A stretch of 54,623 bases of DNA from positions 1-54,623 of the forward strand of contig CAYHDV010000004.1 of the NCBI GenBank assembly GCA_964355515.1, in the 5' to 3' direction. This stretch comes from an uncultured Candidatus Saccharibacteria bacterium. Its GTDB lineage: Bacteria; Patescibacteriota; Minisyncoccia; Phycocordibacterales; CSBR16-119. Below, one piece after another: positions 16,832 through 54,623 of the stretch (position 1 is the stretch's first letter; every line of letters starts with the position of its first letter). The position numbers and the translations under genes are program-made. A model generated the notes under the pieces. It was not told where the DNA came from and ran no database searches. It was given only the letters and a program-made list of their open reading frames with translations.

Positions 16832-16868
16832 CTTTTGTAGAATGGGAATACGGTATACTGAATACTGT

Positions 16869-17246
16869 ATGAATACAATAACAAAGTATACTGATCTTCA
16901 CGCTTGGCAATATGCGCACCATTTGGTTTTAGAAATATACAAAATAACTGAATCATTTCCCGACTCAGAAAAATTTGGAATGACGAACCAGATTAGACGA
17001 GCAAGCGTTTCAATAACCTCAAACATTGCAGAAGGTTTTGGTCGCAATTCAATGAATGAAAAACGTCAATTTTACTCAATAGCCAGAGGGTCATTATTCG
17101 AGGTTCATAACCAGTTGCTTATTGCAAAAGATCTTAAATTTATACCAGCGGAAGCGTTCATTGATTTCGATACCAAAATAGAAACCATTTCAAAACTTAT
17201 CTCTGGTATAATCAAAAAGGCACAAAGCCGACCAATTATAAATTAA
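16869..17246 (+). CDS. four-helix-bundle protein (23S rRNA intervening-sequence protein family)
   Basis: AWQYAHHLVLEIYKITESFPDSEKFGMTNQIRRASVSITSNIAEGFGR...RGSLFEVHNQLLIAKDL. ATG at 16869. Confidence 0.85.
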   Translation: MNTITKYTDLHAWQYAHHLVLEIYKITESFPDSEKFGMTNQIRRASVSITSNIAEGFGRNSMNEKRQFYSIARGSLFEVHNQLLIAKDLKFIPAEAFIDFDTKIETISKLISGIIKKAQSRPIIN

Positions 17247-36353: not shown

Positions 36354-37403
36354 TCATAAACTAATACCAGTCTTTGCCCGTATATGTTTCTTTAATTTAT
36401 ATCCATTCCCATGACGGAGCATTCCCAGATACGACTGCACGGTTTCATCTTTTTCAGCCAGCTTCACTTTTTTCATCATTCTCCTCTTTGTACTGGTCCG
36501 TAATACGCGGTGGGACGAAAAATGTACCCAACCTAGAAAATCCACGCCCGAAGAATATGTTTTAATAAAAACTTTGCCTGGATGTAATTCAATTCACAAT
36601 TTTTCTAAAAGAAAAATTGCGATTGTGTTTTTTACTTGTTCCAATTCTTCTCTTCTATGTGAAAGAAATACAAAGTCATCCGCATAGCGAATATAGTATT
36701 TCTGTTTTAGTTTGTGTTTTACAAACTGATCAAATTCATTCATATAAATATTAACCAATAATTGTGATGTAAGATTGCCAAGGGGTAGACCTCTCTTTGT
36801 CATTCCGGACTCGATCCGGAATCTTGTGTTAGATCCTGAAACAAGTTCAGGATGACACCCTGCTGACTGGAAACTATCAATAACTTGCCTCAATAGCCAC
36901 AAGACATCATCATCAAAAATATGTTTTGTAAGAATATCTTTCAAAATTGCATGATCAATACTTGCAAAGAACTTCCTAATATCACATTTTAATACCCAGC
37001 ATTGATTTGTATTGTTTTTTGAAACCTTTCGAAAAAAATCCCTAAATCTATCTATTGCCTTGTGGGTACCTTTACCTACTCTGCATGAATATGAATCATA
37101 AATGAACTTTTTGTCAAAATATGGATACAGTACGCGATAGATAGCATGGTGGAGTAATCTATCTCGCACACTGGCTTTATGAATATCGCGTGGCTTTGGG
37201 TCATTTACCTTGAAAGCTTCATATCCACCATGGATGTAGGTTTTGGTTGAAAGGTCGTAATGGAGGGAGAAAATATTGGACATAAGATTTCTTTCAAATT
37301 CTTGAGTGTCTTTTCGTTTTTTCTTGTCACGGATAAATTCTCTCCACGCTTCGAGCAAGTTTTCAACAGAAATGATAGAATGATAACTATGAATAAGCTT
37401 CAT
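36354..37403 (-). CDS. DGR reverse transcriptase; one frame interrupted by an in-frame TGA at 36594-36596 and carrying a 60-nt repeat insertion
   Basis: NDPKPRDIHKASVRDRLLHHA, KCDIRKFFASIDH, LPLGNLTSQLLVNIY (DGR-type [LIV]GxxxSQ) and YIRYADDFV (YxDD), then after the TGA IELHPGKVFIKTYSSGVDFLGW. The two track ORFs 36594..37430 and 36354..36545 share one frame. Confidence 0.85.
36798..36857. repeat. double-hairpin palindromic element inserted in-frame in the RT gene
   Basis: Hairpins ATTCCGGA-CTCGA-TCCGGAAT (36802-36822) and ATCCTGAA-ACAAG-TTCAGGAT (36833-36853), flanked by TGTCAT/ATGACA. The second hairpin recurs at 40613-40633. Confidence 0.75.
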
Positions 37404-37416
37404 ACCAATAAGTCTA

Positions 37417-37426
37417 CCCCCCCCCC
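37417..37426. repeat. C10 homopolymer tract in the divergent RT/avd 5' region
   Basis: Ten consecutive C on the plus strand at 37417-37426. Confidence 0.95.
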
Positions 37427-37470
37427 GCACACTTTTACCAGTTTTACAAAAAGTAAAAGCGTCATATCTC

Positions 37471-37788
37471 TTGTGGTATCAGTATTTTCAAATACTACCC
37501 AAAACGCATCGTCACTCGATCGGTATTAAAATTGACACACTTTTTACAGAACTTATCGAAGCAATTTCTGTTGCAACTTTTTTGGATAAGACAGAAAAAC
37601 AACCTTGGGTTCGTCTTGCAATACGAAAAAATGACACGATAAAAGTCTTTCTTATGATTCTTTGGGAAACGAAATCTCTTGATGATAAAAAATATATTGG
37701 ACTTTCTGAAAAACTTGAAGAAGTTGGAAAAATGCTTGGTGGTTGGAATGGGCAAATTACAAAATCTCTAGAAAAGAAATCTCCATAA
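37471..37788 (+). CDS. avd: DGR accessory protein Avd-like (four-helix bundle), opposite strand to TR, RT and target
   Basis: YQYFQILPKTHRHSIGIKIDTLFTELIEAISVA ... KSLDDKKYIGLSEKLEEVGKMLGGW. The track start is TTG. Conserved-looking N-terminal residues (LPVLQKVKASYL) continue upstream in the same frame with no start codon. Confidence 0.75.
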   Translation: MWYQYFQILPKTHRHSIGIKIDTLFTELIEAISVATFLDKTEKQPWVRLAIRKNDTIKVFLMILWETKSLDDKKYIGLSEKLEEVGKMLGGWNGQITKSLEKKSP

Positions 37789-37794
37789 ACAAAA

Positions 37795-37819
37795 CTCCCT
37801 CGACTATATGTCGAGGGAG
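37795..37819 (-). terminator. 10-bp hairpin just 3' of the TR (minus strand), followed by TTTTGTTT
   Basis: CTCCCTCGAC (37795-37804) / GTCGAGGGAG (37810-37819). On the minus strand the hairpin is followed by TTTTGTTTATGG. Confidence 0.5.
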
Positions 37820-37834
37820 AAATGAAGAGAGTTT

Positions 37835-37962
37835 CGGAGAGAGAAAACGAACCGATTGTTGGCATTCCACTTGTTGTCGGGATTACCCCAGTTGTCGTTC
37901 AGTTCCAGCTCGTCACCATTGGCATTCAGGTTGAACAACCTCGGCTTGCCAGCGGTAGAAAT
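37835..37962 (-). repeat. DGR template repeat (TR)
   Basis: 128 nt colinear with 38329-38456. All 22 mismatches are A in this copy (minus strand). It contains 33 A and 10 AAY codons in the VR frame. Confidence 0.92.
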
Positions 37963-38303
37963 GTGCAAGGTACCATCTGTGCCTCCACCCTTTCATCACA
38001 ATGTAAAGAAATGGGTTGTATAGTATACGATATAATAATATCCCAGCACCTTGCACCAAGTATCTTCATTTTTTGTGAAGTGTCTACATACACAACGCTC
38101 TATGAAACCCTACCTGCGGTAGGCAGGCGTGATCGCATATATTCTGAATGTATGGATACTGGATTCAGGAGCATACAACCTTGATCGTACACATATTCCC
38201 CTACTACCGATTATAGTATACAAAACTATACACAGTTGTAAAACAAACCAAGGTCAAAGTTCAAAGTGACAAAAGAGAATAAAGTGTCTCATTTCAAAGC
38301 ACT

Positions 38304-38325
38304 ACCTGCCTACCGTTAGGCAGGT
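38304..38325 (-). promoter_or_regulatory. hairpin/cruciform just 3' of the VR (candidate DGR target-recognition element)
   Basis: 9-bp stem ACCTGCCTA / TAGGCAGGT with a 4-nt loop. It starts 3 nt past the VR end and contains the target gene's TAA stop. Confidence 0.6.
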
Positions 38326-40460
38326 TTGCGGAGAGAGAAAACGAACCGAATGTAGGCATCCCACTCGTAGGCGGGACCACCCCAGTCGCCGAACAGTCCC
38401 AGCCCGCCACCACCGGCACTCAGGCCGAACAACCTCGGCTCGCCAGCGGCAGAAATTGGTTTCATATGCATGACTCTCCATGAAGTATCGGTATCAGATA
38501 TTCGTTTTGTTGGGGCAAAATCATGAGGCACCACATCGAGATTGTATTCTTGTGCCTTGTCCATAATTTGTTGGTATGTCGCACCATTTGGGAAACCAAG
38601 GTCTGCAACCGATATGGTAACATTGTTGATTTCTGTCCCTACAGGAGAAGTTCCAAATTCATGAGAGTTGAGCATTTCCTTTGTATTTCCGTATAAATTT
38701 ATGCCACTCTCAATGAGAAGTTTCTCAAGTTCGGGACCTGTTTTACCACCGACGATTGTTTTTTCTTTGTGTATAAGACCCTCAGGAAAACTTGTTGCAA
38801 CATGTTCCAATTGAGATAGTTTGAAAACATCTTTGAAAAGTGGTCCCACATAGACTTTGGTATTTTCATTTACCTGATCTGGAGTACGCGCAAGTTGATC
38901 GGGTCTACAATCAAATACCACATACATATCATACTCTGTATTTCGCTTTTCTCTGACTTCTTTGACGCGAGGATCTGGATCATAGCCAAAGCTTTCAATT
39001 TTGCGATCGATTTCATATAAAAATATCAATTCATCTTTACTCAGTTGTGGATCAAGGTAAATTTTTTCTTTTGTTTCTTTGTCTATACGAAATGACTTTG
39101 TATATATTTCGGTCATGAGTCGCATGTCATGGTCAGCTCGTTCATATTTTTCAGCACCGGGGAGGTCTTGATATTTTTCTTTTGCAATATCAACTAATTC
39201 TGGTTCCAATGCTTGTCTAGTGTTAACTCCGCGGATTTCTCCAATTTTGACATCTTCCATACGAATAGCAACACGCGGTTCAGTATTGATACCATCTTTG
39301 TTTTTTGTGTAATACACATAAAAATCACCTTTTTCAATTTGTCCTTTTGCAGATCCTTCAGCAGTACACCAACCTGTTCCTTTTCCCTGAAGGGATTTCT
39401 CAAGCACCGTATAATCGCTTCCCTGTTCGTATTTTACCCATTCTCCTTCGATAGATTCACGGTTCAATGCACCTGCGGTTTCTACCTGCGCAAATGCATA
39501 GAGTTTAGCAAAATCTGTTGTATGAAGTCTATGCTCAAATTCTTTTCCTAAATCCCCTTTTCGAGATTCTTCCAATGGATATTCGTTGATGAAATCCTGT
39601 GTCAATTCATTTTTATGTGTTTGCAGATATTCACTTCGTCTTTTATTACGAAGATTTTTTAATGCACCTTGGCGAGCAAGTTCAAAGAACTCTGGTTTTG
39701 CTTTTTCTTTGATTTTTTGTTCGGTTTCTGAGTCAAGAATAGTGTTTTGGACAATTTCATTTTCCACATCTTCTGGAATAGTTATAGCATCAATGTCCAT
39801 TTGCAATTCCAAAGATTTTCGTACGAATCCGAGTGATTCTGAATTAAGTTCCGGAAATGGAGCAATAGTGTCTGTAGTTCGTGCAGAATATGAAGGACCT
39901 TTGATGATAATAGGATTACCTTCTTTGTCTTTTCCATTTGCTTCAACATCGTGTCGATTAAATTGCCCCATTTCTTTGAGTCCACGTATGGTGTAATATT
40001 TAAACCACATAGGATAGTCATTTGACGTACGCAAATAGTGTAGCCATGATGATAGAGTTTGTTTTTGAATTTCGTATTTTTCTTTGATTGCATTTTCGTA
40101 TTTTACAAGAATTTCCGTATGAGAAAGTTTTATATTTTCGACTTCGGCTCCATGACCACGCTGGATTGCAATTCTTTTTTCTGATTCATACAGATCTTTG
40201 GCAAGTTTCATGACTAATTCCTTGTCATGCATATCAAGTACAAAATCTTTGACAATCATGCGTTCTAGCAAGTCTGCGCCGGTTCCCAAAACACGCCCAT
40301 CTTTGTCTTTTCGTTCTGTATTCATAACACGCTCGATACGGTCAAGATATGCCTGAACAGGCGAAATATCCTCTTTCTTTTCAAGAGTTTTTGCGCGAGA
40401 GACCTGCTTACTGTCTTCGAGGGTTTGATATTTATTATGGAGAAATTCTGGACCGTTCAT
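38316..40460 (-). CDS. DGR target protein (714 aa) with a C-terminal variable region; N-terminal ~670 aa unassigned
   Basis: Long intact ORF whose last 43 codons are the VR (ISAAGEPRLFGLSAGGGGLGLFGDWGGPAYEWDAYIRFVFSLR). No signal peptide or TM helix seen. Confidence 0.85.
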   Translation of the reverse strand: MNGPEFLHNKYQTLEDSKQVSRAKTLEKKEDISPVQAYLDRIERVMNTERKDKDGRVLGTGADLLERMIVKDFVLDMHDKELVMKLAKDLYESEKRIAIQRGHGAEVENIKLSHTEILVKYENAIKEKYEIQKQTLSSWLHYLRTSNDYPMWFKYYTIRGLKEMGQFNRHDVEANGKDKEGNPIIIKGPSYSARTTDTIAPFPELNSESLGFVRKSLELQMDIDAITIPEDVENEIVQNTILDSETEQKIKEKAKPEFFELARQGALKNLRNKRRSEYLQTHKNELTQDFINEYPLEESRKGDLGKEFEHRLHTTDFAKLYAFAQVETAGALNRESIEGEWVKYEQGSDYTVLEKSLQGKGTGWCTAEGSAKGQIEKGDFYVYYTKNKDGINTEPRVAIRMEDVKIGEIRGVNTRQALEPELVDIAKEKYQDLPGAEKYERADHDMRLMTEIYTKSFRIDKETKEKIYLDPQLSKDELIFLYEIDRKIESFGYDPDPRVKEVREKRNTEYDMYVVFDCRPDQLARTPDQVNENTKVYVGPLFKDVFKLSQLEHVATSFPEGLIHKEKTIVGGKTGPELEKLLIESGINLYGNTKEMLNSHEFGTSPVGTEINNVTISVADLGFPNGATYQQIMDKAQEYNLDVVPHDFAPTKRISDTDTSWRVMHMKPISAAGEPRLFGLSAGGGGLGLFGDWGGPAYEWDAYIRFVFSLRKPA
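38329..38456 (-). repeat. DGR variable repeat (VR)
   Basis: See the TR entry. Substitutions relative to TR adenines: 16 to G, 5 to T, 1 to C. Confidence 0.92.
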
Positions 40461-40553: not shown

Positions 40554-40638
40554 GGATTGCTTCGTGCCTCGCAAAGACGAAGTTTAAGTGGAGTGATTGT
40601 ATGACATCAGAGATCCTGAATTAAATTCAGGATGACAA
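40554..40638. repeat. 25-nt dispersed repeat copy plus ATCCTGAA/TTCAGGAT hairpin, upstream of the DGR target gene
   Basis: GGATTGCTTCGTGCCTCGCAAAGAC at 40554-40578; hairpin at 40613-40633 followed by GACA. Confidence 0.8.
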
Positions 40639-53696: not shown

Positions 53697-54623
53697 TTCC
53701 TAATAGGAATTCGAATAATTAGTACTCCTCTGCTAAATGCATTACTGCATGTACACATAGAGCCTATCAACGTGATCATCTCTCACGATTCTCAAATGAT
53801 TCCTTATCTTAAAGTTGGCTTCCCTCTTAGATGCTTTCAGAGGTTATCCATTCCCAACATAGCTACCCAGCAATGCTCCTGGCGGAACAACTGGTACACC
53901 AGAGGTCAGTCCACTTCGGTCCTCTCGTACTAGAAGCAGATCTTTTCAAGAATCAACGCCCGCAGTAGATAGGAGACCAACCTGTCTCACGCATTTTGTT
54001 TTATTTCCCATGCTAAGAGGAACCTTTATTACTAAAGGGATCGGACTGTATCCTCATCTTTTTAAAGATGGTCAACGTGCAGTCTCTACGGGTGGTTTAT
54101 AAACTTTACAAAAGTGAGGTAAAAATTACCTCAAGAAAGCAAGAAGGGTTGGTAGCGATCGTTAATTATCCGAGTTTCGCGATCTATCCAGTTTTGACGT
54201 CCGTGTGCACACGTATATCATCTTAGTCAGACCGGTCGAATGAAGTCACTACCTTCCCAAATCTTGCAATAAAGAACCTTTGTAAAGTTTATAAACCTTC
54301 CCTCGGTATTACCCATACAGTATTCAGTATTCTCATACAAAATTCCATATTAGGGTTCCACCGATATCAGTCGACTTCACACACAATATTTCTAAAGTGT
54401 GCCGCCGTGATTGGTTGGTTTCTATCTTTTATTATTATTTCTTAGACGAAAAGACTCGATTTTACTTGTATCATTATTTTATTTTTTCACAAATGTGATG
54501 TCTGTTATGTATGCTGTGATTCAGATTTGTCTGTGAGTTAAAAAATAAATTTTCACTCCCAGACGGTCTGAACCCAGCTCGCGTACCTTTTTAATTGGCG
54601 AACAGCCAAACCCTTGGGACCTT
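53697..54623 (-). rRNA. rrl: 23S ribosomal RNA, 3' part (continues past the window end), interrupted by an intron at 53992-54562
   Basis: The minus strand reads ...GGTACGCGAGCTGGGTTCAGACCGT[intron]CGTGAGACAGGTTGGTCTCCTATCT...TAGTACGAGAGGACCGAAGTGGAC...GGATAACCTCTGAAAGCATCTAAG...GAGTACTAAT, matching domains V-VI of bacterial 23S. The 3' end is approximate. Confidence 0.92.
53992..54562 (-). other. 571-nt ORF-less intron in the 23S rRNA (group I-like splice-site rules)
   Basis: It interrupts the universally conserved ACGUC/GUGAGACAG segment. The upstream exon ends in U and the insert ends in G. No ORF of 60 aa or more on either strand. Extensive internal pairing, for example 54094-54113 with 54279-54298. 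Confidence 0.7.

Follow-up and report, generated by a model that had tools for sequence, protein, structure and literature searches.

The 54,623-nt stretch analysed here (positions 1 to 54,623 of contig CAYHDV010000004.1, assembly GCA_964355515.1, from an uncultured Candidatus Saccharibacteria bacterium; hereafter the window) carries a diversity-generating retroelement (DGR). Its cassette comprises a target gene whose 3' end holds a variable repeat (VR), a template repeat (TR), an avd-like accessory gene and the reading frame of a DGR-type reverse transcriptase (RT). The RT frame is interrupted by an in-frame nonsense codon. The cassette is neighboured by typA and a gene for an HI0933-like oxidoreductase, a housekeeping setting. 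The coordinates of all features are collected in Table 1.

Table 1. Features of the DGR cassette and its surroundings, in window coordinates (ORF, open reading frame).
Feature	Position	Strand	Remarks
Target gene, 714 aa	38316-40460	minus	ORF; Patescibacteria protein family with C-terminal variable domain
Variable repeat (VR)	38329-38456	minus	codons 669-711 of the 714-codon target ORF
Hairpin right after the VR/TR homology	38304-38325	minus	9-bp stem, ACGG loop; target stop codon within the stem
Three tandem 8-nt words (CACTTTGA ACTTTGA CCTTGG)	38248-38268	minus	downstream of VR; clade-wide word count
Sigma-70-like site TTTACA-16 nt-TATACT	38215-38242	minus	consensus scan, 10/12 matches
Long-range helix P0, 5' strand AAAUGAAGA	38063-38071	minus	pairs with 37828-37820; A-rich, just 5' of P1
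Structured RNA domain directly 5' of TR	37963-38057	minus	about 95 nt, predicted three-way junction P1-P3
Helix P1, 12 bp	38057-38045 with 37974-37963	minus	closes the junction with P2 and P3; 3' strand stops one base short of TR
Hairpin P2	38042-38029	minus	within the P1-closed junction
Hairpin P3	38015-37988	minus	within the P1-closed junction
Template repeat (TR)	37835-37962	minus	128 nt, 33 adenines
Long-range helix P0, 3' strand UCUUCAUUU	37820-37828	minus	just 3' of TR
Post-TR stem-loop, 10 bp (CUCCCUCGAC / GUCGAGGGAG), then UUUUGUUU	37787-37819	minus	terminator-like
avd-like accessory gene, 105 aa	37471-37788	plus	antisense to target, TR and RT; between TR and RT
Hairpin in the divergent avd/RT intergenic region	37432-37459	minus	just 5' of the G-run; stems vary between loci and stay complementary (by eye)
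G10 homopolymer	37417-37426	minus	13 nt upstream of the RT ATG; repeat kept at this site in related loci
DGR RT reading frame	36354-37403	minus	RVT_1 E 6e-27; 349 codons if the TGA is read through
60-nt double hairpin within the RT coding sequence	36798-36857	minus	encodes insertion CHPELVSGSNTRFRIESGMT between RT motifs 3 and 4
In-frame TGA nonsense codon in RT	36594-36596	minus	upstream of the thumb region

The two repeats show the signature by which DGRs are recognised. When aligned with MAFFT, TR and VR match over 128 columns with 0 gaps. A script counted 22 mismatches, and 22 of 22 fall on adenines of TR (16 A>G, 5 A>T and 1 A>C). The hypergeometric probability that chance would place all of them on an A, given the adenine content of TR, is 6.5e-17. 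Read in the frame of VR, TR contains 10 AAC/AAT codons. The likeness breaks off abruptly at both boundaries. The final 21 nt of the homology (TCGGTTCGTTTTCTCTCTCCG), a candidate IMH-like end, are identical and free of A; beyond them the flanks differ, VR being followed by one additional C. A search of the whole 54.6-kb window that demanded a match at the non-A positions of TR found no second VR.

A sequence-only reading of this stretch had previously reported the ungapped 128-nt pair, the 33 adenines of TR, 22 mismatches of these three kinds confined to them, and the 10 AAC/AAT codons. Realignment and recounting gave the same figures, with no mismatch at a non-adenine position of TR. That reading had further proposed adenine-specific mutagenic retrohoming and a chromosomal, non-phage context among housekeeping genes. 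The former is supported by the repeat signature, the DGR-type RT and the A-biased related loci described below, and the latter agrees with the neighbouring genes. VR was said to form the last 43 codons of the target ORF. It does lie at the 3' end, but three codons (K-P-A) and TAA come after it.

The RT carries the motifs GLPLGNLTSQ and YADD. Its best relative among solved structures is the 328-aa RT of entries 8ub7-8ube (8ub7_A; E 1.3e-39), which has IGSLTSQ and YMDD at these places. We take this chain to be the bRT of the Bordetella phage. Group II intron RTs of solved structure match at E 4e-18, and retron RTs are weaker still. With these values, and with Patescibacteria relatives that adjoin A-biased TR/VR pairs, the RT does not fall outside the DGR clade. 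The best NCBIfam match, which is below threshold, is to the group II intron RT model TIGR04416. A group II intron was rejected on two grounds: Rfam gave no intron match, and the RT reaches 136 bits against the TIGR04416 cut-off of 300.

To place the element in its clade, 160 related loci were fetched, 80 from species-representative (Patescibacteria) genomes and 80 from metagenomes, with RTs 58-68% identical in the scans. RT relatives overall are 58-84% identical, and the genome loci are nearly all labelled Patescibacteria. An A-biased TR/VR pair lies upstream of the RT in 112 related loci, where 1950 of 2076 mismatches are at TR adenines. The median TR is 125 nt long, with a median gap of 339 nt between VR and TR and 408 nt between the end of TR and the RT start. 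The order target/VR, TR, antisense avd, RT is common to more than 150 related loci. Of 139 related loci, 136 have avd antisense and none has it in sense orientation. From this order, the spacing and the antisense avd, the cassette in the window therefore has the standard architecture of the clade. Only four RT relatives above 50% identity were found on viral contigs.

DGRs of Patescibacteria, also called the candidate phyla radiation (CPR), were reportedly first described by Paul and colleagues in Nature Microbiology in 2017. DGR clade 2 has been described as restricted to Patescibacteria, cellular, and directed at targets without recognisable domains (Roux et al., 2021; PMC8144416). The locus is a member of this already well-documented kind of CPR DGR and no new kind of system. 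Like clade 2 elements, it has nearly only Patescibacteria metagenome-assembled genomes (MAGs) as sources of its nearest genome RT relatives, a chromosomal and non-viral setting, a target without a transmembrane segment or recognisable domain, and a single VR at the 3' end of the target. It differs in the nonsense codon of its RT, which is unique among the ~160 relatives.

The closest MAG, GCA_017992365.1 (loci L004 and L002), has a target 85% and an RT 84% identical to those of the window; its assembly is broken within the cassette, at avd. The neighbours there are HhH-GPD and ATP synthase genes on one side and Mur ligase genes on the other. The unlike neighbours of the two cassettes suggest mobility of the cassette or extensive genome rearrangement.

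As written, the RT consists of 269 codons and a 63-codon downstream ORF. The 269-codon part ends shortly past YADD, and the 63-codon part carries conserved thumb-side sequence. The sequence-only reading had rightly noted the DGR motifs LGNLTSQ and YADD, but the TGA at 36596-36594 had gone unmentioned. Owing to this codon, the element lacks an intact, expressible RT. In the corresponding column of 20 aligned RT homologues, the residue is R, K, Q or S. The closest RT relative (84% identical, from a Candidatus Pacebacteria MAG) has CGA (Arg) at this site, and the TGA is therefore explained by a single C>T change. Only the RT of this window has an internal stop among ~160 related RT genes. Intact genes were found in 156 of these, and TGA is the normal terminator of 55 of the 156. 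The truncation makes present-day activity doubtful. The simplest reading is that the TGA is a young inactivating mutation, with room for low-level read-through. The interruption weakens the case for current activity and leaves the identification as a DGR untouched.

On the reading that we prefer, with a probability of about 0.9, the locus is a chromosomal DGR of the Patescibacteria clade whose RT has acquired a CGA->TGA change ahead of the thumb. The element has most likely been inactivated recently, which would leave VR frozen, with rare UGA read-through at best. How this past diversification could have proceeded can be outlined from the locus. An RNA carrying the 128-nt TR would be transcribed from the minus strand. 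Within it, TR would be held as a loop, with the three-way-junction domain abutting its 5' end, helix P0 closing the loop, and the 10-bp stem-loop and U-run following. The RT, aided by the antisense-encoded Avd, would copy TR into complementary DNA (cDNA) and misincorporate opposite adenines. The cDNA would then replace VR at the 3' end of the 714-aa target gene. As an outcome, up to 33 positions (10 AAY codons) would be randomised in a small, probably C-type-lectin-like domain.

Could the element still be active? Low-level read-through of the UGA, or cooperation of 269-aa and 63-aa pieces, would amount to a deliberately weak supply of RT. In favour of this, a near-identical strain bears a different VR, so that turnover was very recent; the TGA allele is the sole allele of this RT found in a collection of 5.8 billion proteins, where it occurs on 4 contigs; and the frame past the TGA is fully open and conserved. 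However, no relative has such a stop, the CGA of the closest relative suggests a plain C>T nonsense mutation, TGA serves as a normal terminator in the clade, and the window holds no sign of recoding. The open downstream frame may only reflect the youth of the mutation. Continued activity is thus judged unlikely. A metagenome scan for the same species, in which the best RT match was 67% identical, gave no additional alleles of the TGA site or of VR.

That the TGA arose in sequencing or assembly, and that the RT is intact, is considerably harder to maintain. Single-base errors do happen in metagenome assemblies, but an independent Logan assembly of run ERR3856788 has 100% identity to the window across 7978 nt, TGA included, and a truncated RT product of 278 aa is recorded on 4 contigs. 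We regard this explanation as very improbable.

Hardly any credence is given to a third explanation, by which the genome would translate UGA as a sense codon (code 25 or code 4, known from Gracilibacteria and Absconditabacteria) and the RT would be uninterrupted. In its favour, UGA is recoded in some CPR lineages, and few long ORFs of the window end in TGA. Recoding was nevertheless rejected, since long housekeeping ORFs of up to 1005 codons are without in-frame TGA, the homologues have R, K, Q or S rather than G or W at the site, and TGA ends 55 of 156 related RT genes. In the window, TGA terminates 5 of 43 long ORFs; 2 of these 5 are probably spurious, as each overlaps a longer ORF of the other strand. 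Finally, an ordinary duplication beside an unrelated retron or group II intron RT, with a coincidental adenine bias, can be dismissed almost entirely: the best, sub-threshold NCBIfam match of the RT would fit it, but the chance of the bias is ~6e-17, a like bias is seen in 112 related loci, group II and retron RTs are far more distant from the RT than 8ub7_A is, and the region has no Rfam match, be it to group II introns or to any other RNA family.

Recent diversification under the preferred reading, that of a DGR with a newly lost RT, is indicated by a sister strain. A contig of 2905 nt (L003) from run ERR12084957, another sample, matches window positions 40580-37677. Over these 2905 nt there are 26 differences, 24 of them within VR, and TR is identical. 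The two near-identical strains thus differ almost only in VR, and the diversification is therefore recent. Compared with TR, the VR of L003 has 15 differences, namely 13 substitutions at adenines, one 1-nt insertion and one C>T.

The protein subject to this variation belongs to a large family. At least 1789 homologues of the target were found, all unnamed and, wherever the source was named, from Patescibacteria-group bacteria; an exact look-up of the 714-aa sequence found no record. The target matched no Pfam or NCBIfam family, a profile search against the PDB gave no match, and no signal or membrane segment was recognised in it. The AlphaFold model of the whole target has a predicted local distance difference test (pLDDT) score of 91.9, and a Foldseek search with it returned nothing significant. 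The C-terminal 119 residues folded alone reach a pLDDT of 89. For this domain, the best Foldseek matches in the PDB are mainly C-type-lectin-like proteins (rhodocetin, NKG2D and BDCA2), with E 0.16-1 and template modelling (TM) scores of 0.35-0.46. A viral structure library was uninformative for the domain and the target alike. A C-type-lectin-like fold of the variable domain is plausible from the predicted model.

The accessory gene had been proposed as an Avd-like ORF between TR and RT. Its position and its Pfam bAvd match agree with this, and its strand has to be corrected: the ORF is encoded on the plus strand, opposite to the other parts of the cassette. The product scores 40.3 bits with bAvd (cut-off 40) and 46.6 bits with the NCBIfam model DivGenRetAVD (cut-off 80); no match was found in the PDB by sequence. 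With the bAvd match, and with homologous ORFs in the same antisense position in related loci, an Avd-type accessory protein is encoded beside the RT. A free-standing protein of 134 aa from the 23S rRNA-intervening-sequence family (PF05635, E 1e-38), which has weak bAvd similarity, is encoded at 16842-17246 (+), next to thrS and distant from the DGR.

Several points weigh against parts of this account. The RT interruption itself makes a working element doubtful. The scores of Avd with the hidden Markov models are marginal, just at the cut-off in Pfam and under it in NCBIfam. The Foldseek scores of the variable domain are weak, and the lectin fold is therefore not established. In L003, the 1-nt insertion and the C>T in VR truncate the protein; these may be an assembly artefact or a chimera of VR variants. 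The VR alleles seen are two only and come from assemblies, and the L003 contig ends before the RT. Lastly, the hairpin that follows VR in the window was rejected as a feature of the clade, as a comparable hairpin occurs in few related loci only.

What does occur downstream of VR in nearly all clade members is a set of tandem ~8-nt words of the form CTT(T/A)G(A/G), which in this window lie at 38246-38300 (minus strand). In related loci L007-L166, such words number 2.5 per 110 nt 3' of VR, compared to 0.41 in shuffles, and their spacing peaks at 8 nt.

The surroundings of TR appear to be folded in the transcript. For the domain directly 5' of TR, RNAalifold with a plain MAFFT alignment of 104 loci gave compensatory changes in 20 of 21 predicted pairs. 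The cells of this alignment are paired in 94.9%, compared to 71.6% in column shuffles and 30-50% with slid partners; the covariation score is 0.77, compared to 0.30 for shuffles and 0.11-0.19 for slid partners. Compensatory changes across loci are visible for P0 as well, and its duplex energy averages -6.6 kcal/mol for cognate strands and -4.9 kcal/mol for non-cognate ones (Mann-Whitney p 6e-10, n=103 loci). Covariation thus supports the predicted pairings. Downstream of TR, a hairpin with a T-run is found in 107 of 112 related loci, and its stem sequences vary yet stay complementary. Neither the 5' domain nor the stem-loops matched an Rfam family, whether gathering thresholds or a limit of E 10 were applied. 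The sigma-70-like site of Table 1 is a candidate promoter of the TR RNA, and both ends of this transcript are placed provisionally.

For the RNA of the Bordetella DGR, a duplex between upstream and downstream strands followed by a post-TR stem-loop has been described, and the same has been predicted in 207 other DGRs (bioRxiv 10.1101/2023.10.23.563531). P0 and the post-TR stem-loop fit this scheme. By analogy with the Bordetella phage system, the RNA elements would have similar roles, and the post-TR stem-loop is a candidate Avd-binding stem-loop. No counterpart of the P1-P3 junction between the upstream strand and TR was found described in the literature. The 5' strand of P0 can alternatively form a local hairpin with sequence just upstream (CUUCA-CAAAAAA-UGAAG at 38064-38080, minus strand), and this alternative is visible in many related loci; the two pairings could possibly act as a conformational switch in the TR RNA. 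Public gene callers annotate an ORF of 120 aa at 37822-38184 (+), antisense to TR and the 5' RNA domain, and an ORF of 148 aa lies at the corresponding position in L004-L006. The 120-aa ORF is most likely spurious.

Compared with the DGR of Bordetella phage BPP-1 (mtd-avd-TR-brt), the element shares the adenine-specific transfer from TR to VR, an RT with (I/L)GxxxSQ and YxDD, Avd, a VR at the 3' end of the target, and a TR RNA bracketed by upstream/downstream pairing and then a stem-loop. BPP-1 is phage-borne, whereas the element here is cellular. Its avd is antisense and lies between TR and RT, while that of BPP-1 is sense and upstream of TR. Structured RNA of ~95 nt (P1-P3) lies here between the upstream strand and TR, whereas in BPP-1 it is mostly 3' of TR (Sp), and only ~45 nt separate TR from the U-run here. 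The post-VR hairpin is not a feature of this Patescibacteria clade, and the RT has an insertion of 29 aa between motifs 3 and 4. The length of this insertion region is hypervariable among homologues; it is missing in some of them (P0003 and P0004) and has no counterpart in 8ub7_A. The double hairpin that encodes it resembles an in-frame insertion of a small palindromic repeat element. One of its hairpins (TGTCATCCTGAA..TTCAGGATCT) is found again at 40611-40637, in the intergenic region upstream of the target gene. The insert matched no Rfam family, even with the cut-off relaxed from gathering thresholds to E 10.

A further feature of the clade is a simple repeat just before the RT start. The G10 run is one of only two G/C runs of at least 8 in the window. 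A simple repeat occupies this site in 139 of 146 related loci, consisting of G7-14 in 122, (GA)n/(AG)n in 12, (GT)n in 3 and (CTGG)n in 2. Across 836 kb of related loci, G/C runs of at least 8 are almost all at this site, and the repeat is absent from 71 distant phage-type DGR loci. Its length is polymorphic. One lineage has alleles G9 and G8 with flanks 100% identical over 600 nt upstream and 900 nt downstream, and another has G9, G10 and G11 with near-identical flanks. The contigs bearing these alleles have only ~4x coverage, and homopolymer error is therefore a real caveat on them.

Phase-variable contingency loci, in which poly-G/C tracts or short repeats lie in the promoter or the 5' coding region, are known from genes of Neisseria, Haemophilus and Campylobacter. 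The site resembles them in having a homopolymer or a 2- or 4-nt repeat at a fixed position just upstream of a gene start, with a repeat unit that varies by lineage and length alleles within identical or near-identical flanks. It differs in that a test of reading frame was negative, the geometry of a sigma-70 spacer was not fitted, and the alleles come from ~4x assemblies. Translation starting at the 5' edge of the G-run, so that the run would encode N-terminal glycines and set the frame, was unsupported: 16 of 58 edge starts are in frame, which is no more than chance would give, and the run lengths are spread evenly over the three frames. The repeat may be coding in the (GA)n loci and in one G-run lineage, where no ATG follows it. 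Inspection by eye for a promoter with the G-run as its spacer showed no consistent -35/-10 spacing.

The most interesting, though unproven, reading of the repeat is that it controls RT expression in the manner of a contingency locus. Taken jointly, the proposals that the pre-RT repeat is a contingency switch or tuner and that the P1-P3 junction is a clade-specific device for stopping and positioning reverse transcription are offered tentatively, and we consider the pair somewhat doubtful. Neither feature is in Rfam or described in the literature covered. The clade literature consulted, to which Paul et al. 2017 does not belong, yielded no mention of an antisense avd, the 5' RNA domain or the pre-RT repeat. 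The repeat is the only potentially new lead.

Elsewhere in the window, the 3' end of a 23S rRNA gene lies at 53698-54623 (-). Rfam model positions 2559-2925 (367 positions) are spread there over 926 nt, which implies an insertion of ~560 nt, an intervening sequence or intron. Insertions in rRNA are known for CPR bacteria. ARAGORN found no tRNA gene in the 54.6-kb window.

As a DGR, the locus is ordinary; the abundance of such elements in Patescibacteria is already established. It is also a natural case of a DGR just past the loss of its RT by a nonsense codon, with a sister strain that bears a different VR. Such a case bears on how long diversified proteins persist after their mutator has been lost. 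The target family, with its at least 1789 proteins and confident predicted structure, raises the question of which proteins CPR cells diversify and for what reason. With the antisense avd, the structured domain 5' of TR, the helix that brackets TR and the polymorphic repeat, there are concrete points at which the construction and regulation of these abundant, uncultivated elements can be tested. If the proposal for the repeat is true, slipped-strand length changes would tune the RT, and perhaps avd, up or down, and targeted hypermutation in Patescibacteria would itself be phase-variable.

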